DNA of 64,000 nt from Candidatus Bathyarchaeia archaeon (lineage in GTDB: Archaea > Thermoproteota > Bathyarchaeia > Bathyarchaeales > Bathycorpusculaceae), in NCBI GenBank assembly GCA_050015395.1, contig JBEKBM010000008.1, forward strand, positions 33,244 to 97,243, written 5' to 3'. Below, piece by piece: positions 1,260 through 24,174 of this stretch. The position numbers and the translations under genes were made by a program. How positions within the stretch are numbered: the first letter of the stretch is position 1; each line of letters opens with the position of its first letter. Under the pieces are notes generated by a model. The model saw only the letters and a list, made by a program, of their open reading frames with translations. It ran no database searches and had not been told where the DNA came from.

Positions 1260-1619
1260 TTTTTGGCTTTTTTCTAAGCATTTTTGTGGCCGGATTTTGT
1301 CACAAATATTAGGGTTATCCCTATCGGTCAAAGCCAAACATGTGCCTGCTACCGCCTACCCCTAAGAGGTCAAAATATATACGATTTTTAGATACGTTTG
1401 TATATACACTTATTGAGCGTAGACAGAAGCTGCGCACTTCCAACATAAAAACATGTTTATTCATGCACATTTTCGCGCAATTAACCTGTTTATAGTTTAA
1501 ATAAGGTCAGATCAACGCTGAAGAAAATAATTTTAAAGTGGCTTTTTTGAAGTAAATGATTATGCTTACACCATTAGTAAATTACATGAGGTAAAGGCAG
1601 TTAGGATTGAGGCCTATCA

Positions 1620-1657
1620 GTTTCGCTATAAGCGAAATTATTTAAAATAGAGCGAAA
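1620..1657. repeat. Left copy of a 38-bp inverted repeat; contains palindrome TTTCGCT-ATA-AGCGAAA
   Basis: Reverse complement matches 2351-2388 at 31/38 positions by manual alignment. Confidence 0.85.
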
Positions 1658-1659
1658 GT

Positions 1660-2337: not shown

Positions 2338-2350
2338 GTGAGAAAAGTAG

Positions 2351-2388
2351 TTTCGCTCTCATTTATATAGTTTCGCTAATGACGAAAC
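2351..2388. promoter_or_regulatory. Right copy of the 38-bp inverted repeat; holds the TATA box (TATATAAA on - strand) of the antitoxin gene and palindrome GTTTCG-N7-CGAAAC
   Basis: Seen in sequence; TATA lies about 25-32 nt upstream of the ATG at 2337. Confidence 0.8.
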
Positions 2389-2459
2389 AAAACCTAAACT
2401 ATAAAAACAGTTCAGAAAGTAATAATGTTCCAACCTCAAATACTTACAGGTGACTATGC

Positions 2460-8584: not shown

Positions 8585-9490
8585 ATGGCGTTAGCGGATA
8601 AAATCCTAAAGCTCAAGAAAGAAAAGAAAGCTGTGATATTAGCTCATAATTACCAAAGACCAGAAATCCAGAACATAGCTGACTACGTCGGCGACAGCAT
8701 TGAACTGAGCCGCAAAGCGGTTGAGGAAAAAGATGCTGAAATGATTGTTTTCTCAGCTGTAGATTTCATGGCTGAATCAGCAGCGATTCTCAATCCAGAA
8801 AAGAAAGTTCTTTTGCCCTGTTTAGGCGCACGTTGTCCAATGGCGCAGATGCTTACGGTTGATGAGATAAAACGTGCTAAAGCCCAATACCCAAAGGCTC
8901 CAGTAGTGCTGTACGTGAACACTTTGGCTGTGTGCAAAGCCAACTGCGACGTTTGCTGCACCAGCGCCAATGCTGTGGAAGTCATAAAATCTCTCGACGC
9001 AGACACGATTCTGTTTGGTCCAGACCGTAATCTAGCCGAGTACGTTTCTGAGAAAACGGGTAAAACGTTGATTCCGATTCCTGAATGGGGATTTTGCCCA
9101 ACGCACCTGCTTTTCCAGCCTGAAGATGTAATGGTCCTAAAGATGCAGCATCCAGACGCGACTGTTATGGTTCATCCTGAATGTAGCTCTGAAATGCGCA
9201 AAGTAGCTGATTACGTTGGCAGCACCTCAAAGATGTGCCGTTACGCAAAAGAATCCAGCGCCAAAGACTTCATAGTTGGAACTGAAGAAGGTATTCTGCA
9301 CCGCCTGCGGAAAGAGAACCCTGAGAAAAACTTTTACTTGGCGTATGAAGATGCAATATGCCCAAACATGAAGTTGACAACGCTTGATCGCCTGTATATT
9401 GCGTTGAAAGAGGAGAAGAATGTGGTTAAGGTTCCGGAGGCAGTTGCGAAGAAGGCTCGTGCTTCACTTGAGAGGATGTTTGAGGTTTAA
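8585..9490 (+). CDS. nadA: Quinolinate synthase
   Basis: ILAHNYQ, CPMA, CCTSANA, HPEC, GSTS, CPNMK. Confidence 0.97.
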   Translation: MALADKILKLKKEKKAVILAHNYQRPEIQNIADYVGDSIELSRKAVEEKDAEMIVFSAVDFMAESAAILNPEKKVLLPCLGARCPMAQMLTVDEIKRAKAQYPKAPVVLYVNTLAVCKANCDVCCTSANAVEVIKSLDADTILFGPDRNLAEYVSEKTGKTLIPIPEWGFCPTHLLFQPEDVMVLKMQHPDATVMVHPECSSEMRKVADYVGSTSKMCRYAKESSAKDFIVGTEEGILHRLRKENPEKNFYLAYEDAICPNMKLTTLDRLYIALKEEKNVVKVPEAVAKKARASLERMFEV

Positions 9491-9894
9491 ACGGTTACTA
9501 TTGTTGTTTTGAGGATTTTTACTCCTCTTCTTGTTGTTAATTCGTCGCTTAGTTCGCGTAGTTCTGAGGCTTTACCTTTAACTGCTATGGCTTCTAAGCA
9601 GTCTCGTTGGCTAATGTGAATATGCATGGTTGCTGTAATCAGTGAGGAGTGTTCATGCTGCGTTTCGGTTAGTTCACTTTCAAGTCCTTTCACATCATGG
9701 TCATAAACCATCAGCAAAATGCCTGTTTGGATCGTATCTTCTTCTTTGAGCCATTTTCGCTCGGAAACGTACAGTCTTACAGCGTCTTGTATGGCTTTGC
9801 TGCGGCTTTCGTAGCCCATTTTGCTTATGATTTCGTCGAACTCTTTGAGGAGTTCAGGTGGGAACGTTACGCCTATGCGGGTGACTTTTGACAT
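9487..9894 (-). CDS. nikR: Nickel-responsive regulator NikR
   Basis: N-terminal RHH (RIGVTF..ELL.EFD...GY.SRSKAI.DA), YDH, QH, HIH..CLE. Confidence 0.93.
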   Translation of the reverse strand: MSKVTRIGVTFPPELLKEFDEIISKMGYESRSKAIQDAVRLYVSERKWLKEEDTIQTGILLMVYDHDVKGLESELTETQHEHSSLITATMHIHISQRDCLEAIAVKGKASELRELSDELTTRRGVKILKTTIVTV

Positions 9895-9946
9895 GGACAT
9901 CGCTGATGAATGTGGGTGTTTTGTACCTAAAAGCTTTTATACGTTT

Positions 9947-9976
9947 AGTAACACCATTTCGAAGAAAAGTGTTACT
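9947..9976. promoter_or_regulatory. Putative NikR operator AGTAACAC-N14-GTGTTACT, just downstream of TATA (TTTTATA 9935-9941)
   Basis: Perfect 8-bp inverted repeat; 6-16-6 geometry as in NikR sites; lies between divergent nikR and the NiCoT gene. Confidence 0.8.
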
Positions 9977-9992
9977 GAAGGACTTTGTGAAA

Positions 9993-11072
9993 TTGACGGA
10001 AAAAAACTCTGAGTTCGGGCTGTCAAGCAACGAGAAAATCAAGGTAGCTATAATTTTCGCCACTATTCTAACCGTTACCGTGTTTGGTTTTATTGCATCA
10101 TTTGTTATTGGAGAAATCGCCGTGGTTCTTGCAGGTCTCGGACTAATATGTTACGTTCTTGGGTTGCGTCACGGTGTTGACGTTGACCACATAGCAGCTA
10201 TCGATAATACGACGAGAAAATTGATTCAGCAGGGGAAGCGTCCCTCTACGGTTGGATTGTGGTTTTCTCTTGGGCATTCCACGATAGTCGTTGGTCTTAT
10301 AGTGGGTCTAGTCTTGGCGACGCGGGCTGTTGCAGCTAATATTCCTGCTCTTGAAAGTTCAGGTGCAATAGTCGGAACCCTAGTATCGGGTGGTTTTCTT
10401 TGGATTATAGGCTTAATTAACGCTGTCATCGTGCTTGGAATCTACCGAGTCTTCCAGGGTTTAAAGCAAGGTAAGTTAAATCAGGATGAGCTCGACAATC
10501 TGCTTGACAAACGTGGTTTCATGAATAGGTTTTTCCATCCGCTCTTCAAAATCGTAAGTGAACCTTGGCAGATCTATCCAATTGGTGTACTTTTTGGCTT
10601 AGGATTTGATACCGCGACCGAAGTTGCCCTCATCGCTATAAGCATAGGAGTAGGCGTTTCCACACATATTCCTCTGTATTATATTCTGATTCTTCCGTTA
10701 ATGTTTACGTGCGGCATGGTCCTGGTAGATACTTCAGATGGTGTTACGATGAGGGTAGCTTACGGTTGGGCTTTCTATAACCCCATACGGAAGATATACT
10801 ATAATTTGACAATCACGGTCATGTCGGTGCTTGTTGCGTGGGTGATAGGTACAGTGGAGCTTTTGCAGGTGCTTTCAACTGAATTGAACCTTAGCGGGTG
10901 GTTTTGGGGCTGGCTCAACGGACTGGATTTTGAATCGATAGGTTTCGGAATAGTTCTCATCTTCGTTCTGTCTTGGCTGGTTGCCTACGGGTACTGGCGG
11001 TACAAGCGATATGATAAGCAGTTCCCGCTCAACCAGTCAGGGCAATATTCAATAAACTCCGACACCAGATAG
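9993..11072 (+). CDS. HoxN/HupN/NixA (NiCoT) nickel/cobalt permease
   Basis: GLRHG.D.DHIAAIDN, FSLGHST, GLGFDTATE; likely TTG start at 9993. Confidence 0.92.
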   Translation: MTEKNSEFGLSSNEKIKVAIIFATILTVTVFGFIASFVIGEIAVVLAGLGLICYVLGLRHGVDVDHIAAIDNTTRKLIQQGKRPSTVGLWFSLGHSTIVVGLIVGLVLATRAVAANIPALESSGAIVGTLVSGGFLWIIGLINAVIVLGIYRVFQGLKQGKLNQDELDNLLDKRGFMNRFFHPLFKIVSEPWQIYPIGVLFGLGFDTATEVALIAISIGVGVSTHIPLYYILILPLMFTCGMVLVDTSDGVTMRVAYGWAFYNPIRKIYYNLTITVMSVLVAWVIGTVELLQVLSTELNLSGWFWGWLNGLDFESIGFGIVLIFVLSWLVAYGYWRYKRYDKQFPLNQSGQYSINSDTR

Positions 11073-11085
11073 ACAGCGAAGGAAA

Positions 11086-11523
11086 ATGCCTGAACCAAAA
11101 GAACTCGCAGCAACCATAGAATTCGCCCGAAAACTACACGGGCACGTAGGACCATACTTGGTTATCGGCTTAAAGATGGGTGTTGTAGCCAAAAAAGCCC
11201 TAAACATTTCCGACACAGAATGCACGCATCTGACGGCAGAAGCTGCTGTGCCGTTGCATCCGCCGTTTTCCTGCTTGCTAGACGGCATACAGGTTTCCAC
11301 AACCTGCACAATCGGCAACCAAAGACTCAAAATCAAAAACTCAAAAACCATTCAGGCAACCTTTAGAAGCCAAAAAGACGCAAAGACAGTGAAAATAACA
11401 CTTACCAAACACTTCAGTGAACAACTAGAACAAAAGCAAAAACAAGACAAGCTAGACGAAGCGTTCGCTTGGGAACTCGCCGAATTACCTGAGAATCAAC
11501 TATTCAACATTACCCTTGAGTAG
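11086..11523 (+). CDS. FmdE-family (formylmethanofuran dehydrogenase subunit E-like) protein
   Basis: LHGHVGPYLVIG.KMG, SCLLDGIQVST.CT.GN. Confidence 0.88.
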   Translation: MPEPKELAATIEFARKLHGHVGPYLVIGLKMGVVAKKALNISDTECTHLTAEAAVPLHPPFSCLLDGIQVSTTCTIGNQRLKIKNSKTIQATFRSQKDAKTVKITLTKHFSEQLEQKQKQDKLDEAFAWELAELPENQLFNITLE

Positions 11524-11575
11524 TTTAGAGCCAATAGTGTTTTTAGCAGCCCAGCGTTGAAATTAGTGAACAATC

Positions 11576-12010
11576 ATGCAAGACCTCGAAATAGCCAAAA
11601 AAAAAACAGCTCTATGATAAGCAGCTAACGCTTGCCATAGCTAAAAACGGCCAAATGCTGTTCCAAACCGACTCTCACAGAATTTCTGGTTTTATAGGTG
11701 CAATAGACAAATTGGGCGCCCAGCTAAATGGTGCTTCAGTTGCGGATCGAGTTGCTTGCAAAGCATTAGGTTGCTGTGCGTTTACGCTGGGATACGTGAG
11801 GTTTACGCGGTAGTTTTAAGCAAAAAAGCTAAAGCAGTGTTTGAAGAGAACAAGGTAGCCGTTGAGTGGAAGCAGTTAGTGGATAATGTTCTTGACTTAA
11901 ACAAGACGGGCGTGTGCCCCTTCGAGAAAGTTGCCGCTGGCATATCCGACTCCAAGGATTCTTATGGTGCATTCAAGGCTTTGCTGGAGAAGATGAAGCC
12001 CTGCAAATAA
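11576..12010 (+). pseudogene. DUF1893 (TM1506-like) protein disrupted by two frameshifts
   Basis: ATG at 11576; A10 tract at 11597-11606 shifts the frame; the ADRV..KA motif is in another frame; second shift near 11769; C-terminal CPFE. Confidence 0.7.
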
Positions 12011-12086
12011 AACGGAAGTTGGTCGCGAACGGTTTATATCAAGCAAATCCTAAAATAGTAAATTAGAAAAGAGGAGAAAAGAACAA

Positions 12087-12413
12087 ATGAGCACTGAACC
12101 TTTTCACGTAACAGACTCCAATTTTGAGGAAACAATCAAGAAAAACAAGATAGTTTTCGTTGATTTCTGGGCTAATTGGTGTGGACCATGCCGAGCTTTA
12201 GCTCCAACGGTAGTGGAATTAGCGAAAGAGTACAGTGGGAAAGCCTTAATTGGCAAACTTGACGTTGACGAGAACCCTGCTACGGCTGAGCGCTTCCAAG
12301 TTTTCAGCATACCAACCATGATAATTTTCAAAAACGGTTCTGAAGCTGAAAGACTTGTGGGCTTATGCCCAAAAAACAGGATAACTGACACTCTAAACAA
12401 ACATTCAGAGTAG
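12087..12413 (+). CDS. trxA: Thioredoxin
   Basis: DFWANWCGPC, SIPT. Confidence 0.97.
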   Translation: MSTEPFHVTDSNFEETIKKNKIVFVDFWANWCGPCRALAPTVVELAKEYSGKALIGKLDVDENPATAERFQVFSIPTMIIFKNGSEAERLVGLCPKNRITDTLNKHSE

Positions 12414-12415
12414 CC

Positions 12416-13057
12416 TTAGGCACTTTTCATTTTTTCATACATTTTCTCGAAAGTCCAGCGGATGCTCGACTTAAGCTCCTTGAGCCGTTCATCATCCACA
12501 TTTCTAATTATTATTTCTCTTATCAAGTCTCCCTCACGGACAATGTTGTAAGAGAACATTTTATCCGCTGTTAACTGCTTTGTCCTGACTAGCTCACTAT
12601 CTTTCTCTTGCATTTTAGCGAAGATTTTTTCAACAAGAAAATTACTGAAAGGCGGCGTGTTAACACTGAAGTTTTTGCTTTCATCAGGCAACACATGCAT
12701 ACCCTGTTTATCAAAAATAATCAGCGCCAACGGCTCATCAGTCATAGTTTTCAATGGTATAACGGTTTCCTGTTCAGGCATACGCTGGGCGACAGGCTTT
12801 GAAGTGTCAGACGTATATTGAACAACAACCTTTGGGGGTTCAGGCTCTTGTTTTGGCAAAACAACCTCTTTAGGCGCAGGAGCCTCAGGCGCTTCTTTAA
12901 TGTCTCCACGCCTGAAGCCCTTATCAAGCAAGATACCATTAACCGTATCCAAGGCAGCTTGAACCTCTTTAGATTCAGCAGTTAATTTTTCCAGTTGCTC
13001 TTCCATTCGCTTTTTGAATGCGATGAGTGATTTCATTTTTTCCTGGTCTTGAGCCAA
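12416..13057 (-). CDS. Conserved archaeal hypothetical protein with N-terminal coiled coil
   Basis: 213-aa ORF, TPPF..FL and RWT.EKM motifs; co-oriented with lig. Confidence 0.75.
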   Translation of the reverse strand: MAQDQEKMKSLIAFKKRMEEQLEKLTAESKEVQAALDTVNGILLDKGFRRGDIKEAPEAPAPKEVVLPKQEPEPPKVVVQYTSDTSKPVAQRMPEQETVIPLKTMTDEPLALIIFDKQGMHVLPDESKNFSVNTPPFSNFLVEKIFAKMQEKDSELVRTKQLTADKMFSYNIVREGDLIREIIIRNVDDERLKELKSSIRWTFEKMYEKMKSA

Positions 13058-13113
13058 CGTAATTCACGCACGCTGAGTATTTTAGCGGTTGATGCTTATC
13101 AGTTTTAGCTTTT

Positions 13114-14886
13114 CTATGCCTGCGGAGACTCGCTAATTTTCTTCAGTTGGGCACGATACATCTCCACTATCTCTTTTGAAGTAGTCGCGTCTTCTGGGCT
13201 TTTGTCGGTTCGGTATTTACCTGTGAAACGTGGAAAACGAATCGCTAAACCACTTCCCTTGCGTATTGAATCCATAGCGCATGTGTGAATGGGGCTTAAA
13301 GTGATTTCAGCACCTAAAATCTCAAGCACCAAGCTGGGTTCAAACCAAACGTCCGCCTCCAACATCGACTGGACACGCGAATTCTTGCGGGGAATCACAT
13401 GCTTCTGAAGCGTTTCATGAAGCGTTGCAAGGTCTTTGTCTGTGAAGCCTGTGCCGCATTTGGTGACGGTTTCAAAAGTGTCCCCTTCATCGTTATAGGT
13501 GGCTAAAAGCAAAGCACCGTACCTTCCCGCCCGTTTTCCTCTTCCATGAAAAGCGCCCACCACCACTAGGTCCACGGTGTCAGTCATCTCGCTTTTGTAG
13601 TCACGCTTGTATTTTATCCAAAGCCACCCTCGGCTTCCCGCTTGGTAAACTGAGTCTTTGGCGACGGATTTGCACATTAAGCCTTCGCAGCCTTCCGCTA
13701 TTGCTTCCTCAAAGAAGTCTTCAAGCGCCTTTGGATTGTTGACAAGTTTTTGAATGGCTGGTGTTACGCGGTCAGTTTTTTTAACTATTTTTTCAAGCTC
13801 TTTGCGTCTGTGGGGAAGAGGTTCAAGGGTTAAGTCTTTGCCGTCAACATAGAGTAAGTCAAAGGGGAAAAGCGAAATAGGATACTGCTCTATGGCTGCT
13901 TCCACGCCATACTTGCGTCTCCGATGCATTAACTCTTGAAATGGGCGCATATCGCCTGTTTCTAAATCCATCGCCACACATTCAGCTTCCAAAATCACTT
14001 CTTTTGCAGCAATTTTTTCCTTGATTAATTCAACCGCGTCAGGATACTGGCTAGAAATGTTCTCTAAACGCCTAGAAAACAGCACAACTTTGCCGTCTTT
14101 CTTGTGTGCCTGCACCCGTTCCCCATCATACTTGTATTCGGCTACGCATTTGCCGCCGAACTTCTCTAAAATCTCTTCAGGCGAAGCCAACCGCTCTGCC
14201 AGCATGGGCCTTATGGGTTCAAAAACCACAACTTGAAACTCTTTAATTCCATCCAAACCCTTTTCTACAACTACGTTTGCAACTCTGCCAAGGTCAGAAG
14301 AAATGCTATAAGCGCGCTCAACGAGTTCTCGGGCTTCCTTTCCGCCGCCGTACGCTATTGCTAACGCGTCAAGAACCGTCATGTCCGCAATGCCTAGCCG
14401 CAGGTTGCTTGTTACGGTGCGAATTATCCATTTTGCTTCTTTAGGCGAGGCATCAGTTAAAAGACTGGAGAGAAGCGCCATTTTGGTGTCTACAGCGCCA
14501 GAGCCGGAGGTTTTGGCCATTTTATCAAGCGTCTCATAGACGTGCTCAACCGTAAGCGTTCTAGTAAAGAAGGTGGATTGTTTCCGTTTAACCAAAAGTT
14601 TCTCTGCCGTTTCGCCGATGTCCCCGCTTTTTTGCAGTTCAGGTAGAATTACACTTTCGCTTTGTCCAGACGCTCGGGCTAGCGCTTTTATTGCTAGTTT
14701 TTCGGCAATGCCCATCTCAACGCCCATGAAGTCTGGGTACAATTTGCCCTGCGTTAAATAAACAACCCTTGCTATGACGTCTTTGGGCGTTTTTTTTAAC
14801 AAGTCAACTAGTAAATCTGTCATTTCTAGGCGTTTTGTGGTTGCTTCAATTTTTTCGTAGGAGTCAGCGATTACGGCGTAATCCAT
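13114..14886 (-). CDS. lig: ATP-dependent DNA ligase
   Basis: EYKYDGER, EGLMCK, WIKYK, IRFPRF. Confidence 0.98.
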   Translation of the reverse strand: MDYAVIADSYEKIEATTKRLEMTDLLVDLLKKTPKDVIARVVYLTQGKLYPDFMGVEMGIAEKLAIKALARASGQSESVILPELQKSGDIGETAEKLLVKRKQSTFFTRTLTVEHVYETLDKMAKTSGSGAVDTKMALLSSLLTDASPKEAKWIIRTVTSNLRLGIADMTVLDALAIAYGGGKEARELVERAYSISSDLGRVANVVVEKGLDGIKEFQVVVFEPIRPMLAERLASPEEILEKFGGKCVAEYKYDGERVQAHKKDGKVVLFSRRLENISSQYPDAVELIKEKIAAKEVILEAECVAMDLETGDMRPFQELMHRRRKYGVEAAIEQYPISLFPFDLLYVDGKDLTLEPLPHRRKELEKIVKKTDRVTPAIQKLVNNPKALEDFFEEAIAEGCEGLMCKSVAKDSVYQAGSRGWLWIKYKRDYKSEMTDTVDLVVVGAFHGRGKRAGRYGALLLATYNDEGDTFETVTKCGTGFTDKDLATLHETLQKHVIPRKNSRVQSMLEADVWFEPSLVLEILGAEITLSPIHTCAMDSIRKGSGLAIRFPRFTGKYRTDKSPEDATTSKEIVEMYRAQLKKISESPQA

Positions 14887-15116
14887 ATTTTTCGCTCAAA
14901 AGAATACTGATTGCAGCACTTATTAAAATTATATTGATGTTTTTTCTTTTTTAGTTGTCTTGCGGCGAATTCGCCTCTTGGAGACTTGGAACCCAGACTT
15001 TAGATATTCCTTCTTTTTGCACATCCATAGTCAATATACCAATATATAAACAAAACGAACGCATCGCAAATTTTTGAAGCATTTACCAGATAAAGGGAGA
15101 AGATGCTAACTATAAT

Positions 15117-15590
15117 TTATTCTGAAGAAGCTAAAGCTCCCAGAAGAATTATCCCGAGCCCTAGGAGTAATAAACCGCCAATAGAATCTCTCTTTTCTTT
15201 CTCAATTTTAAGCTGATTAAGGTATTGCGCAGTACGTTCGTAACTAAGCCTAGGATTATCTCTGTCGAATACGATAAATGCCTTTTGGGCTAAAAATTGA
15301 GGTATGTTGGAGCCCTTTTCAACAAACGGAAGCACTATTTTATTTAGTGCCACAGCCATGCCTAATTCATAGTTCACGTTCTCCAACCGAGAACCACCTT
15401 TTCCCATTATTGCCAATAGACAATCACTAGTCTGAATCTGGTTTCTTACAAATTGTTCATAGGGTAAGCTCATTGCCTCATTATTGGGAGACAATACTGA
15501 TATAATGCCATATCGCTCAAGATTATTTTTCAATTCATTAGCAACTGTGCTGTCTAAAACACTCGAAGAGATAAAAACCTTAAAAGTCAT
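15117..15590 (-). CDS. TIR-domain protein with C-terminal transmembrane tail
   Basis: VFISSS, NVNYELGMA (catalytic-position E), terminal GGLLLLGLGIILLGALAS. Confidence 0.8.
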   Translation of the reverse strand: MTFKVFISSSVLDSTVANELKNNLERYGIISVLSPNNEAMSLPYEQFVRNQIQTSDCLLAIMGKGGSRLENVNYELGMAVALNKIVLPFVEKGSNIPQFLAQKAFIVFDRDNPRLSYERTAQYLNQLKIEKEKRDSIGGLLLLGLGIILLGALASSE

Positions 15591-16180
15591 TTTTTAGCCT
15601 CGTATTTTTTTCCGAACTTTTCATTTAATTTCAAAGAAGCAACAACAGTAATTATAATCGCTTGTGCGGATGAACTGAGCGACATTGCACTTAATTTTGA
15701 AAATACCTCTTGTACGGTTTCCATTGGATTCTGTTTAAGTTCAACATAGCGGGCAGTTTCAATAAGCCCTTTTATTCTTATGTTCCCCTTTCTCAATGGT
15801 ATGACTGGTACGCCTTTACCAAGCGCATATCCTATTTCTTGATTAACCCAAGGGCTGGTTCTAGAATTCTGCGTAAATATAACAAGGAATAATTCACTAT
15901 TATCAATGGCGTTCTTTACTTGATCAGGAAGAAAACTACCCAAAGGTGCATCCCTATCGGCAAAGAAATTTTGGACGCGTAATGTTTCAAATATTTCGCA
16001 GAGGTCCTGCACGTACAACCCTGTGTCCTTTGTACTATGAGAAATAAAGAAAACGTATTTCTTTATGCTACTCTTTTCCTCATTCACCAAGTTCATTGAG
16101 AGCCACTTAGTATATTGATATGCACTAAGTCTATTCAAAAGGCTATCGCTTGGTTTATTACGCTTTTGATTTTCAGACAC
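15587..16180 (-). CDS. TIR-domain protein (TIR_2-like)
   Basis: FFISHSTKD, AIDNSELFLVIFT.NS..SPWVNQEIGYA; stop overlaps the next start (ATGA). Confidence 0.88.
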   Translation of the reverse strand: MSENQKRNKPSDSLLNRLSAYQYTKWLSMNLVNEEKSSIKKYVFFISHSTKDTGLYVQDLCEIFETLRVQNFFADRDAPLGSFLPDQVKNAIDNSELFLVIFTQNSRTSPWVNQEIGYALGKGVPVIPLRKGNIRIKGLIETARYVELKQNPMETVQEVFSKLSAMSLSSSAQAIIITVVASLKLNEKFGKKYEAKK

Positions 16181-16185
16181 ACTTG

Positions 16186-16899
16186 CTACAGAATATACAT
16201 AAAATTTCCTTTATCAAATGTGTAAGAGACAATATTCTTTCCTTTTATTTCTACGCTCCAATTTTGTGAGCTAAAACCACGGTCAGTCCTAGTCGAGTGC
16301 CGACCTTTTATTAGCCATAAATCGCCTTTTGGTTCGATTGAATTTACCGTCACCGAAGAGGGTTTCTTTTCCTGGTTTACGAACTCTGTCGCAATCTTCT
16401 TAGCTTCATCCATTTCAATTAATCCTTCTTTTAGTTCTTTTGTCGAGGGTTCTTTAATTTTTTCGGTTAAACCTGATAGCTCAAATGCTTTCTCAAGAAT
16501 CGCAGTTACTGTTCGAATGCATTCAGAATCACTTGCTAGGTCAAATTTGTCATAGTCTGTAATGTTTTCTATCAATCTCGGAAACTGCTTGTCCATTGAC
16601 ACGGTGTTGTCCATCCAGCAATAGATAGGAATACCCTTGGTTTTGGCAACAGCGATCTCAAATACAACCCAGTCTCTTGTGTGTTGATCAAGTACTACGT
16701 TGGGGGTCATGATGATGAAAAGACCCATAGAATTGCTAATTGCTTCAATGATTTTTTCAACGGGATTCTTTCCCTCCATTTCACGTATAGCAAAATAAGG
16801 GGTTATTCTCCTTCCTTTGAAGACAAGCGTAATTAGATCAATCAGTTTAGTATCTTTTGTGCTATGTGATACAAAGATTTGACAAGGATTGGAAGTCAT
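16186..16899 (-). CDS. TIR-domain protein with extra C-terminal helix+beta domain
   Basis: IFVSHSTKD, DWVVFEIAVAK.KG.PI; C-terminal EAKKIA.EFV...W.I.G. Confidence 0.8.
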   Translation of the reverse strand: MTSNPCQIFVSHSTKDTKLIDLITLVFKGRRITPYFAIREMEGKNPVEKIIEAISNSMGLFIIMTPNVVLDQHTRDWVVFEIAVAKTKGIPIYCWMDNTVSMDKQFPRLIENITDYDKFDLASDSECIRTVTAILEKAFELSGLTEKIKEPSTKELKEGLIEMDEAKKIATEFVNQEKKPSSVTVNSIEPKGDLWLIKGRHSTRTDRGFSSQNWSVEIKGKNIVSYTFDKGNFMYIL

Positions 16900-17122
16900 T
16901 TATTACCCCATTTAGAGAGATTACAATTATTATATAAGCTCAAGCAATCGCTTGTCAAAGGTAAGGAAAAGTAGATAAGCGTTGTCGCTAAGTAATTACC
17001 AAAATTTCTCATTTTCGTCTTTTTCGATGATTTTATTGGTTTTCTGAATAAAAATGAAGGTTTTTTAAGAAAAGCTTTTAGTCGTTATATGTAGCATGTA
17101 GTGGGTTTGTGAGGCGATTTGG

Positions 17123-17227
17123 ATGCAGAAGAAGTGTCCGGTTTGTAAGCAGGTTTATACTACGTTTGATAGTAAGAAGAAGTATTGCAGTGATGCTTGC
17201 GCTAAGAAGGCTGGCAAAGCAAAGTAG
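17123..17227 (+). CDS. 34-aa Zn-finger microprotein (CxxC...YCS..C)
   Basis: MQKKCPVCKQVYTTFDSKKKYCSDACAKKAGKAK*; GAGG RBS and TATA-like element upstream. Confidence 0.65.
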   Translation: MQKKCPVCKQVYTTFDSKKKYCSDACAKKAGKAK

Positions 17228-17750
17228 AGCCATAAGCTAAAAGAAGAAAGCAAGGCTACCCCAACAACGCGACACTACTTACACCACCTTAATGAAGCCC
17301 AACACCAAGCAGCCCAAAACTTTGGAGCCGCCAAAGGTCAAGCTGATTCGCCATCTTTGTCTATTTCCTGAATTGCATCATTAAAAAAATTGTGTATATT
17401 TAGTTCTTGTTTTTTCTTTTCTACCGCTTTTCCTCTACATCAAAAAACAGATTTTTCTATGTTGAAAAGCACTGTTCTGCATGCAAAGTGCGCGGTTTTC
17501 GTTCTATGCACATCTATGTTGAATCATATTTGGAGCCTATTAGGCTCATCTAGTAGACCGGGTAGGTAGGCTGAGCACACACAAATACCCTAAAACAAAA
17601 AACGAGAGCTAAATACATACCCAAGCAAAAAGCTTACTCTATTCCAGCAGAAAGCACCCATTCGGCAAATATTTTGGAAAAAAAGGAAATAGAATGCAAA
17701 GAACAGTTAACCGCCTTACAGATTCAAGTAAGGCAGTTTTATGCGTTGAT

Positions 17751-18275
17751 TTATTTTGGTGTTGTCAAATATTTAAGGTGTAATGGCTTGATTACGATTC
17801 CAGCCTTCAAATCAGCATGGAAAGTTTGGCTTTCAACCACCCACTCAGATAGTTCTGAATCATGCGCTCTTATGAACTCAGCGAAATTTGAAAAGTTTTC
17901 ATGAAGCGAAATGCAGACAGCATCCCAACCCATCCCTCTCCCGTCCAAAACGAGAATCACATTGGGTTGTTTCATGTACCATTCTCGCATTTTCTGTAAA
18001 GCTTGATTTTTTTCTTCGCCTGTTTTAAGCTTAAGTTTGCTTTTCAAAAACGTGAAAGCTGCTATTTCAAACCCGATTTGACCAAACTTTGGTATAACAG
18101 TGTATCCTTCTATGAAGTTTTCTTCGAGCATAGCTCTTCTTCGGGTCACTGTAGGTTGGGAAACACCTAGGGATTTTGCTAGTTGCCTATCGCTTCTGTG
18201 AGAATCCTTCATTAATTCAAACAGTATTTTGTAATCTATAGGTTTCAGTTCTTTCATTACAACCAACTTCATCAT
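17751..18275 (-). CDS. Lrp/AsnC-family wHTH transcription regulator
   Basis: DYKILFELMKDSHRSDRQLAK.LGVSQPTVTRRR..LE...I.GYT. Confidence 0.9.
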   Translation of the reverse strand: MMKLVVMKELKPIDYKILFELMKDSHRSDRQLAKSLGVSQPTVTRRRAMLEENFIEGYTVIPKFGQIGFEIAAFTFLKSKLKLKTGEEKNQALQKMREWYMKQPNVILVLDGRGMGWDAVCISLHENFSNFAEFIRAHDSELSEWVVESQTFHADLKAGIVIKPLHLKYLTTPK

Positions 18276-18419
18276 TCAATAGCGATTTTGGCATCATATA
18301 TAAACATCGTTGTTGAATAAACAAAAAATCGTTCCAGTTTAACAGGGCAACAGTAACATGGCAATCGATACTCTTAAGAGAAAAAACGCCTAGACAACAT
18401 GCAGGAGCTTTGAAAAATA

Positions 18420-19778
18420 ATGCCGCCTCAAATTTTAAACGGGGTAAAGCAAGAAGTCACTCAATTGCTTAGAGAGTTAATACGCATAGATACAACTAAT
18501 CCTCCAGGAAACGAAACCCAAGCAGCCATTTACGTAGCACAATACTTAGCTAACCAAGGTTTCAAGACTGAAATTATTGAGTCAGCGCCTGGAAGAGGCA
18601 ACGTAATCACGCGTCTTAAGGGAACAGGTGAAAAACCTAGCCTGCTTTTACTGTCGCATCTGGACGTAGTTGCAGCTAACCCAAGCGAATGGACCGTTGA
18701 CCCGTTTGCCGGCACAATTAAGGACGATTACGTTTATGGTAGGGGAGCCATAGACATGAAAAGCATGACAGCCAGTGAAGTGCTAGTCATGGAACTTTTA
18801 AAGAAGAATAATGTCAAGCTTAAAGGCGATGTCGTTTTGGCAGCTACTGCGGATGAAGAAAAAGGGGGTGAAGAAGGGGCAGGCTACCTTCTGCAGAATT
18901 ACCGAGAAAAAATTTGGTGCCCATACGTGCTTAATGAAGGCGGAGGACTAGCTGTTCCAACAGAAAAAGGAAACGTCTTTACAGTGCAGACGGCAGAAAA
19001 AGGAATTTTATGGCTTAAAATAAAAGCAAAAGGAACCCCAGGTCACGGTTCCACTCCAAACACAGCTGATAACGCTATTATGCGCATATACAAAGTCATC
19101 GATAAACTTGGAAATTACCAGCCGGAAACCATGTATATTCCCACACTTAAGAGGTATCTTGCTGAAATTGCAAAGCATAATCCAGAGCTTAACGAGCCAT
19201 TTGCACGTTTACTTGCCAATCCCAAGCAAAGCGAGCAAATATTAGACGAGTTAGCAAAAAAAGACAGAGCTTTGGCTGAGGAAATTAGACCGCGGACTAA
19301 AATGACTATTACACCAACTATGATTCATGGCGGTGTCAAAGAGAACATTATACCTTCAGAATGCGACGTAATATTTGACTGCAGAATACTTCCTGGGCAA
19401 AATGTGGCTAAAACAATTGATTTAATCAAAGGTTTGCTCAAAGATGTGGGCTTAGAAAAGCTGACTTTTGAGTTTATTCAAGTGCATGACGGCTCAGAAT
19501 CATCAACAGAAACACCACTTTACAGTACCATCACAAGCGTTCTTAGAGAATTTGAACCCAACTGCGGAGTAACACCAACACTAGCCACTGGCGGAACGGA
19601 TTCACGATTCTTTAGAGAAAAAGGTAGCATATGCTATGGTTTCCAACCAATGATCCCAGATGAACCAAACGATCAATTAAATAAACGAATGCACGGCATC
19701 GACGAGCGAATAACTATAGAAAACCTTGTTTACGGAACAAGCATACTCTATGAAACCGTGAAGAGGTTCATGAGCTAA
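18420..19778 (+). CDS. M20-family metallopeptidase/amidohydrolase (ArgE/DapE/Acy1-like)
   Basis: SHLDVV, GRGAIDMK, ADEE, NEGG, MHGIDER. Confidence 0.92.
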   Translation: MPPQILNGVKQEVTQLLRELIRIDTTNPPGNETQAAIYVAQYLANQGFKTEIIESAPGRGNVITRLKGTGEKPSLLLLSHLDVVAANPSEWTVDPFAGTIKDDYVYGRGAIDMKSMTASEVLVMELLKKNNVKLKGDVVLAATADEEKGGEEGAGYLLQNYREKIWCPYVLNEGGGLAVPTEKGNVFTVQTAEKGILWLKIKAKGTPGHGSTPNTADNAIMRIYKVIDKLGNYQPETMYIPTLKRYLAEIAKHNPELNEPFARLLANPKQSEQILDELAKKDRALAEEIRPRTKMTITPTMIHGGVKENIIPSECDVIFDCRILPGQNVAKTIDLIKGLLKDVGLEKLTFEFIQVHDGSESSTETPLYSTITSVLREFEPNCGVTPTLATGGTDSRFFREKGSICYGFQPMIPDEPNDQLNKRMHGIDERITIENLVYGTSILYETVKRFMS

Positions 19779-19929
19779 CAGAGCCCAATTTACCCTTTAC
19801 CTCTTTTTTGATTATATCATACTTGGGCTTTCTCAAACATTAAAACGCTCAAAACCTCACGGAATGCAAAATTTTTATACTTACCCATTCTAACAAGTAA
19901 GATAGCGCCACTTTGGTGTCAACCGCAAA

Positions 19930-20472
19930 ATGACCAGCATGCAAACAATAACTAATCGAGAGACGGCAAGTTTCGAAGCCGCTAAAATCATCGGGTTAAT
20001 CTCTGATACGCATGTCCCTAAAAGAGCCATGTGTATTCCCCAAAAAGTGTTCGAGGTCTTAAAGGACGCAGATTTCATTATACACGCTGGCGACTTAGTG
20101 GAATTATCAGTAATTGACGAACTAGAGCAGATTGCCCCAGTTTTAGCGGTTCATGGCAACATGGATGGCCAAGAAGTCAGCGGCGCTTTACCTGAGCTTA
20201 ATTCACTTAAAATTTTCGATTGGAAAATAGGCGTAATGCATGATCCGAACGTTCTTCAAGGTTCAGGTAAGATGGTGGAAATTGCTAAAGAGAATGGTTT
20301 CAACGTTTTTGTTTATGGGCATACGCATGCTTCCAAAATAAAATGGGAAGAAAAAAATCTCTTCATTAACCCTGGAAGCCCCACTGACCCAGCATCTTTC
20401 ATGATTAAGCCATCGGTTGGATTGCTAAAAATAACAAAACAAACCATAACGCCACAAATAATAAACCTTTAA
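19930..20472 (+). CDS. YfcE/MJ0936-family metallophosphoesterase
   Basis: SDTH, HAGD, GNMD, GHTH, NPGS. Confidence 0.92.
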   Translation: MTSMQTITNRETASFEAAKIIGLISDTHVPKRAMCIPQKVFEVLKDADFIIHAGDLVELSVIDELEQIAPVLAVHGNMDGQEVSGALPELNSLKIFDWKIGVMHDPNVLQGSGKMVEIAKENGFNVFVYGHTHASKIKWEEKNLFINPGSPTDPASFMIKPSVGLLKITKQTITPQIINL

Positions 20473-20685
20473 CCCGCTAGAACAGACCAATAAAGAATAA
20501 TATACAAGGATATTCCAAAAGACAGTGAAACAAGCCATACTGCCTTGATTATAATGAATAGTCACTGACTCCTTTACCTAACAATTAGATGCTCACAAGT
20601 GCAACCTCCGAAAAAACAATCCATAAACCTCAACCATGTTCGCGTGCTACGCGCTACAAACTCATGATTTGTCAAACGCTGAGCG

Positions 20686-21345
20686 TCACCACATTTTCAT
20701 ACATACACTTCCCAGAGAAGTGAGACTCGTCACTAACAAAGTTCCAGCCAAAACCAAATTACCCATCGAGTTACTTCCCTGTAGCAGTGAAGTCGAGAAG
20801 ATAACACACAAGAAAATGTAGAAGGACATAAAACCTAAAACACCCTGAACAACGCGAATCACTCCTCGAACTCTATAAACCTTCGACCGAACAAGCCTCA
20901 GAACAAAAGTCAATCTCTTCGAAACATCAGCAAAATCGTCTATGAACAAAGTTAAACCACCCAAAGCAAAGAAACGCCCAGCATTAACCGCAAGACTATA
21001 TCCGTTCCCAACAAATATACCGAAAAAAGAAATGGAGCCAAACAATAAAAGCAAAGTACACGCTAAGACAAAAATGATAAACCCATAAACATAATGATGA
21101 AACCACAACCTCCCTGTTTTCACCCTACCAACTCTCACGACAAAATAAATGTTAAAAATTGCAGCCAAAACCGCAAACCAAAAGAAGGAGCCATCAATAA
21201 GATATGGCGGATAAGGCTTCCAATAATACCTTGCCGAATAGAACCCCTCCAAAACCCCCAACACCGAGACAATGCTGAGAAGAGAATTGAAAGTCAATGC
21301 CAAACTGCAAATCTTTTTCCCATAAGCAAAAACAGTAGCCATCAA
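20686..21345 (-). CDS. Hypothetical multi-TM membrane protein
   Basis: About 6 hydrophobic segments; WFHHYVYG motif. Confidence 0.7.
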   Translation of the reverse strand: MMATVFAYGKKICSLALTFNSLLSIVSVLGVLEGFYSARYYWKPYPPYLIDGSFFWFAVLAAIFNIYFVVRVGRVKTGRLWFHHYVYGFIIFVLACTLLLLFGSISFFGIFVGNGYSLAVNAGRFFALGGLTLFIDDFADVSKRLTFVLRLVRSKVYRVRGVIRVVQGVLGFMSFYIFLCVIFSTSLLQGSNSMGNLVLAGTLLVTSLTSLGSVCMKMW

Positions 21346-21586
21346 ACATCCACCTTTCTGCCCGTTCCAGATAGTGCATTCTAATAATTAAATTATCTAT
21401 CTTAGCTAAGTACCCGCGTGCCAGTTTGTTGCTAATTCAATTGGTTTGTGTTAATTTCTGCTATCGCGCGGCCTTGAAAGCGCTAAAAGTTTTACTTTCA
21501 CTCACCCCTCCCCTGCTCCAAACAGTAGTTTTTGCAACCACCTTAAAAGCGCTAAATGCTAAAGCGGTATTTCAGAGGTAAGATAC

Positions 21587-21724
21587 ATGGAGCATTGTAA
21601 AAACCCTTGGAAAGACGACTGTAAAAGCGAAAACATCAAACTATACATTGAGATAAAAGGCGAAAAATTGCCTATCTGCCAACAATGCTGGAGCAAAATA
21701 GCTGACCAAGAACAAGAGTGGTGA
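21587..21724 (+). CDS. 45-aa Cys-rich microprotein (C.NPW...C....PIC..CW)
   Basis: MEHCKNPWKDDCKSENIKLYIEIKGEKLPICQQCWSKIADQEQEW*; GAGGT RBS; 7 nt before the next ORF. Confidence 0.7.
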   Translation: MEHCKNPWKDDCKSENIKLYIEIKGEKLPICQQCWSKIADQEQEW

Positions 21725-21731
21725 AAATGCA

Positions 21732-21968
21732 ATGGAAAACTTCAGCATTAACAGCGCCAAATCGTACATTGGAAAAAACGTTAACCTGCACTTAAAAGAT
21801 GGAGCCGTGATAATAAACGTGCAATTAATCGGAATCCATAAGGGCTCAGGAAAAAACAATCTCATCGAGTACACTCCGTATGGAAACCGTAGAAGCACCC
21901 GCATACCATTAAGAATCGTTGCTTGGGCTGAACTGTTAAACTCAAATTTGCTGCAAAGAGCCGCCTAA
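21732..21968 (+). CDS. Small hypothetical protein, possible Sm/SH3-like beta fold
   Basis: YIGKNVNLHLKDG.VI.NV pattern; GGTGA RBS. Confidence 0.65.
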   Translation: MENFSINSAKSYIGKNVNLHLKDGAVIINVQLIGIHKGSGKNNLIEYTPYGNRRSTRIPLRIVAWAELLNSNLLQRAA

Positions 21969-22031
21969 AATGTTACTAAAAAAAACATAAAAGCATAAAA
22001 GCAAAAATACAAGTCAAAACACTTCAAGCTT

Positions 22032-22412
22032 ATGCGTTGCTCAAACTGCGGCATCTGTTGCACAGAAACAGAAATGCTGCTCTCACAAAAAGACATCACG
22101 CGCTTAGAAAAGAAAGGCTTCAGCAAAAACTACTTCGTAAAATATGACAATCAAGGCTATGCACAACTCAAAAACCGAGAAGGCTACTGCGTTTTTTACG
22201 ACGCCAAGAAATGCCAATGTAATGTTTACGCTGATAGGCCTTCAGGCTGTCGAGTTTACCCTGTTATATTGGATGAAGAAAAAGGGATAGTTTTAGACGA
22301 TATCTGCGATTCACGAAACACTATTACAGAAAAAGAAAAAACGATAAAGGGCAAAAGAGTGTTTAGGCTTTTAAAGAGAATCGATAACGAAGCGGCAAAC
22401 AGGCGTTCTTAA
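22032..22412 (+). CDS. YkgJ-family cysteine-cluster protein
   Basis: CSNCGICC, CVFYD...C.VY..RP.GC..YP. Confidence 0.88.
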   Translation: MRCSNCGICCTETEMLLSQKDITRLEKKGFSKNYFVKYDNQGYAQLKNREGYCVFYDAKKCQCNVYADRPSGCRVYPVILDEEKGIVLDDICDSRNTITEKEKTIKGKRVFRLLKRIDNEAANRRS

Positions 22413-22433
22413 GCTTCTTTTAAAAATCAGAGT

Positions 22434-22607
22434 TTATTTCTTGTTGTTTTGGGCATGTTTGCATTGACAGCAAGTTATTTTTGTGTCTTTTTTAGCTTCA
22501 GCTTCTTCCCTTGTTATTACACAGGTTCTTACTAATTTGCCACAGCAATCACAGATAAATTGTACTTCAGCAACGCGGTCGTTAGATTGAAGGACCTTAA
22601 TGGGCAC
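22434..22607 (-). CDS. 57-aa Zn-binding microprotein (CDCCG...CCQC)
   Basis: GTG start 2 nt after the upstream RHH stop; MPIKVLQSNDRVAEVQFICDCCGKLVRTC...TCCQCKHAQNNKK*. Confidence 0.6.
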   Translation of the reverse strand: MPIKVLQSNDRVAEVQFICDCCGKLVRTCVITREEAEAKKDTKITCCQCKHAQNNKK

Positions 22608-22609
22608 AA

Positions 22610-22765
22610 TTATTTTCCTTCTTTTGCAACTTTGTCCTTAGCAAGTAAGTATTCAACGTATTCTCTCATAGTGCGGTTGGTTTCCTCGGCTCTTTTTCTG
22701 ATTTCTTCGTGAACTTTGTCGGTGACGGTTATGCATTTGTATCCTTTTCGTGGCAGAACTCCCAA
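22610..22765 (-). CDS. Ribbon-helix-helix microprotein (about 48-51 aa)
   Basis: PRKGYKCITVTDKVHEEIRKRAEETNRTMREYVEYLL; GAGGAG RBS; start TTG 22765 or CTG 22756. Confidence 0.65.
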   Translation of the reverse strand: MGVLPRKGYKCITVTDKVHEEIRKRAEETNRTMREYVEYLLAKDKVAKEGK

Positions 22766-22876
22766 TCTCCTCTTCCGTACTTTACAGTACGATTGAATAT
22801 ATAATTAACGGTGTCCCCCATATTGTGAAACCTTATATAAATGCACGTTCGCTAACTAGCTTAAGAGAGGAACAAA

Positions 22877-23071
22877 ACGCCGAAGAAAGGCTTTAAAAGC
22901 ATCACGGTAAAGGCTGAGGTTTACGATTACTTTTTTAACGAGTGGCTTAAGGTCAAAGAGGAATACGCCATTAAAAAAGGCATTCATAGCTTTTCAGCCT
23001 ATGTTACCTACACCTTAGCTCAACTGATGAACGAAGAAAAGAAACGAAAAAGTGAAAATAAGCCGCTTTAG
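22877..23071 (+). CDS. RHH-like small regulator (64 aa) with apparent ACG start
   Basis: (M)PKKGFKSITVKAEVYDYFFNEWLKVKEEYAIKKGIHSFSAYVTY..; GAGG RBS; TATA TTATATAA upstream. Confidence 0.55.
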   Translation, partial: TPKKGFKSITVKAEVYDYFFNEWLKVKEEYAIKKGIHSFSAYVTYTLAQLMNEEKKRKSENKPL

Positions 23072-23123
23072 TTGCCCTATCTTTAAATAATTCTTGAGAT
23101 GACTTGTCAACAGTGAAATTGAA

Positions 23124-24125
23124 ATGCCTTGCACGGTAATTGTCGGTGCCTTCTGGGGAGACGAAGGCAAAGGAAAAATAATCTCTTATTTAGCCCTCAA
23201 AGATAAACTCGATTTCTGCGTCAGAACCGGCTCAGTAAACGCAGCACACACCGTCTGGTACGAAGGCAAAAAATACGCTTTACACATGGTTCCCGCTGCA
23301 TTTTTAAACCCTAAAACACGCCTGCTCATTGCAGCAGGTGCAAACATCCATGTTCAGAAATTTTTTGAAGAAGTAGAACTCACAAAAGTGCAGGGCAGAA
23401 TAGGCGTAGATCTGAACGCTTCAATAATTGAGGAAAAGCACAGCGCCCAAGACAAGGCAAGCGCCGTCAACAAAGGCATTGGAACCACAGGTTGGGGTGT
23501 AGGACCTGCAATTGAAGAACGCGTCCGACGAACAGCGAAACTTGCCAAAGACATCCCCGAGTTGAAGCCGTACCTTACTGACCAAGTGAGAGAAGTCAAC
23601 GATGGCTTAGATGAGGGCAAAAAAGTGCTTCTTGAAGGCACACAAGGCTTCATGTTATCACTGTTCTTGAGCGGCGGCTACCCATACGTGACTGGAAGAG
23701 ATACAGGCGCATCAGCCATAGCCTCGGAAGCAGGAGTCGGACCAACAAGAGTTGACGGCGTTCTAATAGTTTATAAGTCATTCATAACAAGAGTTGGCGC
23801 CGGACCGTTACCGGGAGAAATAACAAAAGAGGAAGCGCAAAAAAGAGGCTGGTTTGAAGTCGCTGCCGGAACAGGTAGAGACAGACGCTCAGCACCATTT
23901 GATTTCGAGTTAGCAAAGAAAACCGCCAGGATAAACGGTGCCACACAAGCGGCAATAACAAAAATAGACAGCCTTTTCCCAAACTGCAGGGGTGCCAAAC
24001 AATACAGTGACCTATCCAAGGACGCTAAAGACTTCGTAGAAGAAGTTGAAGACAAAACAGGGGTGCCGGTTGTTTTGATTGGCACTGGACCTGAAGCAAT
24101 GGAGATTATTGACCGCAGAAAATAG
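23124..24125 (+). CDS. purA: Adenylosuccinate synthetase (short archaeal type)
   Basis: GAFWGDEGKGK, EGTQG, YPYVT, TKID, GTGP. Confidence 0.96.
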   Translation: MPCTVIVGAFWGDEGKGKIISYLALKDKLDFCVRTGSVNAAHTVWYEGKKYALHMVPAAFLNPKTRLLIAAGANIHVQKFFEEVELTKVQGRIGVDLNASIIEEKHSAQDKASAVNKGIGTTGWGVGPAIEERVRRTAKLAKDIPELKPYLTDQVREVNDGLDEGKKVLLEGTQGFMLSLFLSGGYPYVTGRDTGASAIASEAGVGPTRVDGVLIVYKSFITRVGAGPLPGEITKEEAQKRGWFEVAAGTGRDRRSAPFDFELAKKTARINGATQAAITKIDSLFPNCRGAKQYSDLSKDAKDFVEEVEDKTGVPVVLIGTGPEAMEIIDRRK

Positions 24126-24174
24126 CAACTTTTATCTTCTAAAACTGCAACCTCTCTTTTCAAGGCGTAATGGA

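Follow-up and report, generated by a model that had tools for sequence, protein, structure and literature searches.

A candidate accessory defence islet in a Bathyarchaeia archaeon with two independent effector-less TIR modules, one of them a recurrent gene pair

We describe a cluster of three TIR genes, here called A, B and C, in a 64,000-nucleotide stretch of archaeal DNA (the window: Candidatus Bathyarchaeia archaeon, assembly GCA_050015395.1, contig JBEKBM010000008.1, positions 33,244 to 97,243). On balance, and with modest confidence, we read the cluster as a small accessory defence islet that holds two independent TIR modules without a separate effector, one consisting of A and the other of the pair B-C. 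We infer the defence role, the NAD+-cleaving (NADase) chemistry, the contact between B and C and the trigger. The three genes lie head to tail on one strand:

16186-16899, minus strand: gene A, a 237-aa open reading frame (ORF).
15587-16180, minus strand: gene B, a 197-aa ORF counted from the GTG at 16180.
15117-15590, minus strand: gene C, a 157-aa ORF.

The original prediction had described three linked, same-strand, low-GC genes of TIR fold and had joined them into a single three-TIR system. Linkage and fold stand, on the evidence of the ORFs, the composition (GC 0.36-0.38 across 15000-17000 vs 0.46-0.48 in the neighbouring ligase gene lig) and the Pfam and structure-model matches. The three-part assembly is not supported, because no organism other than that of the window showed the triplet. 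Its test, set beforehand, was whether other genomes hold the three genes together, and none was found to do so: only B and C are co-conserved. Relatives were collected by large-database searches (34 foreign homologues for A, 36 for B and 16 for C) and by searching 401 genomes of the class with profiles. The A profile matched ten of the 401 genomes at E ≤ 1e-8, its only close match outside the window's own genome (G000) being in G291, and the two other Bathyarchaeia genomes in which the B-C pair recurs (G286 and G448) gave no A-family match at that threshold. Scans for exact 8-residue motifs detected the B motif in none of nine foreign A loci, and the A motif in none of the 60 loci from the B search (L017-L076) or the seven fetched from the C search (L099-L105); across 105 loci the A and B motifs stood together only in the window copies. 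Shared longest-contig size, an indirect proxy for adjacency, linked none of the 34 foreign A homologues to any B or C homologue.

The B-C pair, by comparison, is found in the same order in two foreign loci, with no A relative nearby in either:

L017: B at 118-666 and C at 663-1142, adjacent, with a 4-nt overlap.
L018: B at 10007-10477 and C at 10464-10949, adjacent, the ORFs as listed overlapping by 14 nt.

In the window the stop codon of B and the start codon of C share a 4-nt ATGA, an overlap that had been predicted and holds at the ORF level. The C profile found matches in 23 of the 401 class genomes at E ≤ 1e-5, of which eight hold full-length matches, and in three of these eight (G000, G286 and G448) a B-type gene lies directly upstream of C. 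By the same indirect contig-size proxy, nine of the 16 foreign C homologues sit on a longest contig equal in size to that of a B homologue. Alignment of the B and C profiles by hhalign (probability 99.4%, E 4e-21, 139 columns, 18% identity) brought Glu onto Glu and tail onto tail, and by this profile evidence B and C are paralogues. A predicted B-C complex scored 0.58 and a control 0.45, a result that favours neither binding nor its absence. A 248-aa ORF upstream of B in L018 was considered as a third component and dropped; it belongs to no Pfam family, has one weak PADLOC match and is unlike the ORF that ends L080.

Gene A scored 21.9 bits on Pfam TIR_2 (PF13676), under the 28-bit gathering cut-off, together with a weak PepSY-like match and weak ThsB matches; 13 of its 34 foreign homologues carry a precomputed PF13676 match. 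The AlphaFold model (pLDDT 87.9) shows a TIR-like domain (~1-142), a helix (153-178) and a 4-stranded beta sheet (182-235), in keeping with the TIR plus small beta domain proposed earlier, and in Foldseek searches the N-terminal domain matched SpbK, plant TIRs and the TIR domains of SARM1, MAL and Cat1. In the family alignment (A3, n=25) the motif TRDWVVFE is present with E81 invariant, and relatives of 348-415 aa have the C-terminal domain swapped. The product of A is listed in a public protein collection as a 197-aa protein (P0001), which covers 83% of the ORF, begins only at a Met inside it and so lacks the first TIR strand; relatives of 237 aa show the 237-aa ORF to be the right one. The relatives stand in varied company:

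L082, 9947-11823: an A relative, then cas1 on the same strand (cas1 by Pfam, 2e-50).
L079, 733-2850: an A relative, then a cas1-like ORF on the same strand, read by eye.
L080: an A relative flanked by RHH/PIN genes, read by eye.
L083 and L084: long-form A relatives with other C-terminal domains.
G291: a same-genus form of A with an extra N-terminal domain.

The copies in L082 and L079, both metagenome loci, are 56-61% identical to A. In L083 a 249-aa ORF (323-1072, plus strand) just 5' of the long-form A relative resembles, by eye, a replication initiator of a small plasmid or virus. Judged from these family comparisons, A is a stand-alone TIR protein, from a family with a varying accessory domain, and a module separate from B-C.

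Gene B passes the cut-offs of TIR_2 (54.8 bits, cut-off 28), ThsB_TIR (PF08937, 29 bits, cut-off 21.2) and TIR (25.4 bits), matches PADLOC ThsB models at E down to 3.7e-10 and so has the properties of a ThsB-type TIR of Thoeris. Both FxSHSTxD and WVNQE, the latter including E115, are invariant in its family alignment (A1, n=22), and WVNQE aligns with WTNYE of AbTIR, whose Glu we take to be the catalytic residue. With E81 in A and E75 in C likewise invariant, the Glu claimed for the catalytic position of all three proteins is confirmed in each family alignment. The N-terminal extension once attributed to B probably owes its existence to counting from the GTG and is probably untranslated, because relatives in the 22-row alignment mostly begin near Met29, P0038, P0058 and P0066 having longer, unconserved N-termini. 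The likely start of B, judged from these relatives, is the ATG at 16096 (Met29), giving a protein of ~169 aa; the 5 nt predicted between the stop of A and the start of B hold with the GTG, and with Met29 the gap widens to 89 nt. A promoter/terminator scan, whose sigma-70 model is not applicable to archaea, pointed to a TATA-like TTATATATAATAA ~30 nt 5' of the ATG of A and to no clear TATA-like element 5' of Met29 of B. B ends in a hydrophobic or amphipathic helix, in which the hydrophobic residues form a short run with interruptions; it appears to be a membrane tail that has degenerated. By tblastn, B found one distant TIR match in phages and eight in plasmids, all below 35% identity.

Gene C exceeds the 28-bit cut-off of TIR_2 with 32.7 bits. 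It stays below that of PF05014 (Nuc_deoxyrib_tr; 19.3 bits over residues 49-96, cut-off 28.8) and of DUF4062/NIR PF13271 (19.2 bits, cut-off 24.7), and it is assigned to neither family; a CAP12-PCTIR match also fell under its cut-off, and the ThsB matches were weak. Five C homologues carry precomputed PF13271 matches, and one source labels C homologues 'nucleoside 2-deoxyribosyltransferase'. The model of C (pLDDT 85) consists of a flavodoxin-like (TIR/NDT-like) domain (1-112) and a single long helix (113-155) that terminates in GGLLLLGLGIILLGALA, a stretch judged by eye to be a membrane helix, as the predicted architecture of a TIR with a membrane tail had it. Its Foldseek matches include NDT, the SARM1 TIR, TIR-STING, DNPH1 and MilB, and neither SLOG nor Macro folds occur among the matches listed (~35 rows down to rank 50); a KpSwz chain in the PDB matched at E 0.87 only. 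The family alignment (A2, n=17) has an invariant E75, a conserved tail GGLLLLGLGLLLL and the motif FISSS..D. The signature of catalytically competent, NADase-type TIRs, namely F-x-S-H/S-S-x-x-D at the first strand and a conserved Glu after the third, is present in the cluster, with E81 in A, E115 in B and E75 in C as the Glu; the VNYELG stretch of C lies within the weak PF05014 match. The identification of C with ThsI, the CMP hydrolase plus TPR protein of type VIII Thoeris, was rejected, C being only 157 aa long and having no TPR domain.

C has the layout of what we treat as a working family of tail-anchored short TIRs, proteins of ~150-170 aa with a TIR domain, a K/E-rich helix and, judged by eye, a hydrophobic membrane helix at the extreme C-terminus; B aligns with C over the tail. 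Searched against 1.84 billion cluster representatives, the C profile matched 16,609 at E ≤ 1e-3, of which 917 reached E ≤ 1e-10 and 16 reached E ≤ 1e-30. Among the best 150 matches, proteins of 150-170 aa that align to about position 150 are mixed with giants holding 3-7 TIR stretches; P0093-P0102 and others, for instance, are 1000-2300 aa long and have 3-7 separate C-family TIR stretches, with E down to 1e-50. All 13 short relatives that were fetched (153-164 aa) have a hydrophobic end after a K/E-rich helix, and so does the 323-aa P0121; SHSTKD was present in six of the 13 and WVNQEIG in five. Family members occur in several arrangements:

L102: a single-gene member with B-type motifs and a C-type tail, adjoining HEPN and integrase genes.
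L103: a single-gene member adjoining a DUF4062 protein.
L101: a lone C-type gene adjoining HD and RelA_SpoT proteins.
L104, 3792-4834, and L105, 3398-4599: a C-like tail-anchored TIR overlapping a conserved partner of 182-186 aa.
L023: a Dehalococcoidales relative, a TIR with a membrane tail, then a multi-pass membrane protein.

L104 and L105 come from two genomes that fall in another family within the class, and represent a different two-gene variant of the tail-anchored TIR family; their partner belongs to no Pfam family, and the L104 copy, searched against PHROGs and NCBIfam, gave no match. A further TIR protein is encoded next door in L104. Full-text literature searches returned no prokaryotic paper on TIR-transmembrane (TIR-TM), TM-TIR, tail-anchored or membrane-anchored TIRs, and none joining the TIR domain, Bathyarchaeota and defense.

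The original prediction had stressed the absence of a Thoeris or CBASS partner and had expected no complete system from PADLOC. Both points were borne out. PADLOC found no complete defence system in the cluster, matching only ThsB-type and other TIR models, and a PHROGs search matched solely families of unknown function. Among the 15 flanking ORFs (8585-25317), no dedicated non-TIR Thoeris effector was found; by Pfam, 12 are housekeeping genes (NadA, NikR, NicO, FmdE, thioredoxin, ligase, AsnC-type regulator, M20 peptidase, phosphoesterase, CxxCxxCC zinc/iron-chelating-domain protein, adenylosuccinate synthetase and HtrA-like protease), and three, of 213, 51 and 219 aa, have no family. The window's own genome (2.59 Mb, 98.9% complete) was searched throughout for SIR2_2/ThsA, Macro, ThcA and STALD, the other effector types of a recent Thoeris survey (10.64898/2025.12.03.692087, as listed in its accessible part) lying outside that search, and no cognate ThsA-type effector was found. 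Its sole SIR2_2 protein (600 aa; L088, G000:C3:20122-23580, ORF 631-2433, minus strand) matches the PADLOC model Aga_SIR2 (5e-36; pAgo-associated) as well as models of stand-alone SIR2, whereas at E ≤ 0.01 none of the ThsA models matched. The sole Macro protein is a 184-aa stand-alone domain without a hydrophobic stretch, the ThcA model had no match, and STALD had none either, a search in which the controls were equally silent.

A fourth TIR protein of this genome is encoded on another contig (317 aa; L001, G000:C22:17679-21065, ORF 961-1914, minus strand). It combines an N-terminal TIR (PADLOC PDC-S66, 9e-18) with a C-terminal domain bearing a YFELGYA motif of the NDT kind, and its neighbours on the two sides are a HEPN-like protein and a protein of 288 aa that has an Mrr/Cas4-like nuclease end; this locus is a second small defence islet in the genome.

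The surroundings of the cluster were compared with same-genus genomes, in which the following features serve as reference points:

13114-14886, minus strand: lig, an ATP-dependent DNA ligase (Pfam DNA_ligase_A_N/M/C), a conserved flank outside the module.
14943-15060, minus strand: a second copy, 118 nt long, of the 5' end of rps12 (promoter/leader and first codons), at the lig-side edge of the inserted segment.
17123-17227, plus strand: a 34-aa zinc-ribbon-like ORF (MQKKCPVCK..., CPxC...C..C), on the far side of the cluster.
17751-18275, minus strand: an AsnC-type HTH regulator (Pfam HTH_24, HTH_AsnC-type), a conserved flank outside the module.

The location of the cluster is accessory. The lig gene has 67-83% nucleotide identity in all five same-genus genomes examined, and lig with its downstream genes, on the one side, and the AsnC and M20 genes, on the other, are conserved in these five on different contigs; B was not found in any of them, and only one of 40 same-genus genomes has a full-length C match. 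The cluster sits at a synteny break, between the rps12 fragment and the zinc-ribbon ORF. The fragment matches the true 5' end of rps12 (G000:C24:49091-49208) at 97% identity, an element that adjoins rps12 in five of five same-genus genomes tested (L096 identifies the rps12 start), and it lies 57 nt upstream of the ATG of lig, near the point (window 14931) at which the homology of the lig upstream region to the sister genome G016 stops. At present lig may be transcribed from a promoter of the rps12 type; alternatively, the fragment may be no more than the trace of a recombination junction. The zinc-ribbon ORF is conserved at the DNA level in three of the five genomes (G016, G110 and G150), and in G016:C12 two near-identical 33-aa copies (L096 4260-4361 and 5171-5272) upstream of rps12 frame other cargo, a 229-aa membrane protein and, by eye, a PIN/AbrB-like (VapBC-like) pair; this ORF may be a landmark of an accessory-gene hotspot. 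Since the cargo of the sister genome is framed by the same landmarks, the TIR genes occupy a variable slot that recombination has joined to the promoter region of lig. Misassembly of this metagenome-assembled genome does not explain the junction, because the same 35-mer junction recurs in two further metagenome contigs. Beyond the rps12 fragment no integration signature was found: Rfam gave no match over 14700-17900, no tRNA gene was detected over 11000-22000, and 14800-17800 held no flanking direct repeats, the repeat families there being short, of two copies each and such as arise by chance.

The cluster was compared with described systems. The short TIR systems TIR-V, TIR-VI as well as TIR-IX of E. 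coli are single proteins or gene pairs whose protection needs the catalytic residues (PMC11350192, as far as the accessible text goes); because effector-less TIR defence genes are thus documented, the missing ThsA is not in itself new. They share with our genes a TIR as the only recognisable domain and no ThsA-type partner, but they are bacterial, and in the accessible part of that paper, compared by description only, neither a C-terminal membrane anchor nor a paralogous TIR-TIR pair is described. Thoeris types I-XI consist of ThsB plus a dedicated effector, according to the part of the Thoeris survey available (10.64898/2025.12.03.692087). B passes the ThsB_TIR cut-off and several PADLOC ThsB models and belongs to a two-gene operon as in Thoeris, but its partner is the TIR-fold C and not a SIR2-SLOG, TM-Macro, caspase-like, SLATT or CMP-hydrolase-TPR effector. 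In its accessible part the same survey states that stand-alone TIRs were discarded, and TIR-TIR or TIR-TM operons may be listed in its supplementary tables. Type III Thoeris, in which multiple TIR proteins are combined with ThcA, an effector of SLOG type (NCBIfam NF058525 and NF058526), likewise has several TIR genes per locus, yet B reached 21.9 bits on ThcB4 against a cut-off of 220, A and C gave nothing, and the genome lacks a ThcA match, which sets the cluster apart from that type. NADases of the TIR-like DUF4062/NIR kind work by themselves or in systems of two genes (10.64898/2026.09.04.749371; 10.64898/2026.05.01.722283, in the portions accessible), and Swarozyc, Vulcan and Vesta, as those portions present them, have in common with C a TIR-like NADase domain of small size that bears a catalytic Glu and stands by itself or beside a single partner gene; C differs in scoring under the PF13271 cut-off and in having no HEAT, phosphatase or portal-binding partner. 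With the N-glycosidases NDT, DNPH1 and MilB the model of C shares the fold, but C is under the PF05014 and over the TIR_2 cut-off, and those enzymes are soluble whereas C is membrane-tailed.

We propose that the two modules work as follows. A would act as a single-gene TIR, its attached helix and small beta sheet taken as the part that senses the trigger. B and C are best read as a duplicated tail-anchored TIR, because their profiles align Glu to Glu and tail to tail and both share the layout of the parent family; the translationally coupled pair would have arisen by duplication of a short protein comprising a TIR, a charged helix and a C-terminal membrane helix. After duplication B would have kept the canonical motifs (FISHSTKD and WVNQE) and lost a clean anchor, while C would have kept the anchor and let its site drift towards an NDT/DNPH1-like form (FISSS..D, VNYELG) with the Glu retained. 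B might then join C, itself tethered to the membrane, on the membrane's inner face, infection by a virus would induce TIR-TIR assembly, and the Glu-dependent sites would cleave NAD+ or a related nucleotide, halting virus replication at the cost of the cell with no separate effector required. Judged by analogy, both modules probably cleave NAD+.

Several observations weigh against two independent antiviral modules. The single strand and short gaps of A, B and C are compatible with co-transcription and cooperation in this organism; the motif scans miss diverged copies, and contig size attests adjacency only indirectly. The B-C pairs of L017 and L018 lie among housekeeping genes, outside recognisable defence islands, and the resemblance of the modelled fold of C to N-glycosidases (NDT, DNPH1, MilB) means that its substrate may be other than NAD+. 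C-like proteins also occur alone (L101) or with a different partner of 182-186 aa (L104, L105), and because C-like genes occur without B, pairing with B is not obligatory for the family.

The arrangement that originally suggested one three-component TIR-only system, with A as sensor, B as adaptor and C as membrane-anchored NADase, is real: a common strand, spacings of 5 nt (or 89 nt) and -4 nt, shared low GC and a Glu in all three, with a multi-TIR precedent in type III Thoeris (10.64898/2025.12.03.692087, in its accessible part). We nevertheless consider such a system very improbable, given that the triplet was observed nowhere but in the window's organism, that A relatives always stand alone and B-C pairs occur without A, and that the type III proteins are unmatched (ThcB4 21.9 vs 220 bits for B, nothing for A and C, no ThcA). 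For B-C the main rival is a minimal Thoeris-like relay in which B would make an ADP-ribose-derived signal and C would bind it, whereupon membrane helices would assemble and damage the membrane, in the manner of the TM-Macro effector of type II Thoeris or of SLATT effectors. That the best defence-model matches of B are ThsB, that C ends in just one membrane helix and has diverged in the region of its active site, that C-like proteins pair with differing partners and that many Thoeris effectors are membrane proteins, 29 effector types being proposed in the accessible part of the survey (10.64898/2025.12.03.692087), all agree with it. We rate it below the duplicated, effector-less pair, and unlikely, because C keeps the invariant Glu, along with the FISSS..D motif of active TIRs, and because single-gene tail-anchored TIRs with B-type motifs exist, in which one protein can hold both roles; SLOG and Macro folds are also absent among the C matches listed, and a lone membrane helix right at the C-terminus forms pores poorly.

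A further variant is one in which duplication split a tail-anchored TIR into a soluble signal-maker, B, and a membrane-tethered receptor or executor, C, which would respond to the product of B or to TIR-TIR contact; we regard such an all-TIR signalling pair as rather improbable. A reading outside immunity, with the proteins as membrane-associated nucleotide- or NAD-metabolising or regulatory factors such as NDT/DNPH1-like salvage enzymes, draws on the 'nucleoside 2-deoxyribosyltransferase' name given to C homologues by one source, on the fold matches of C to NDT, DNPH1 and MilB and on the housekeeping surroundings of B-C in L017 and L018. We hold it to be quite improbable, as the distribution is patchy even inside the genus, the cassette is variable and of low GC, relatives adjoin HEPN, integrase, DUF4062, cas1 and toxin-antitoxin genes, and the PF05014 score of C is 19.3 against a cut-off of 28.8.

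To our knowledge, Bathyarchaeia have no cultured model and few described defences. The failure of the three-TIR claim saves effort that would have gone into a chance juxtaposition, and what remains is a conserved TIR / TIR-membrane gene pair in Bathyarchaeia that descends from a large family of tail-anchored short TIRs, typically of ~155-165 aa, the 917 cluster representatives at E ≤ 1e-10 including giant multi-TIR proteins. Should tail-anchored TIRs turn out to be NADases sited at the membrane, TIR immunity would gain an architecture that is both simple and common, and B-C would be a natural case of TIR paralogues dividing catalytic and anchoring roles. The all-TIR signalling pair, if true, would parallel, in prokaryotes, both sensor/executor TIR pairs and the receptor-adaptor TIR stacks of membranes, and would make the single-gene tail-anchored TIRs a widespread, unrecognised class of membrane-sited antiviral sensors.

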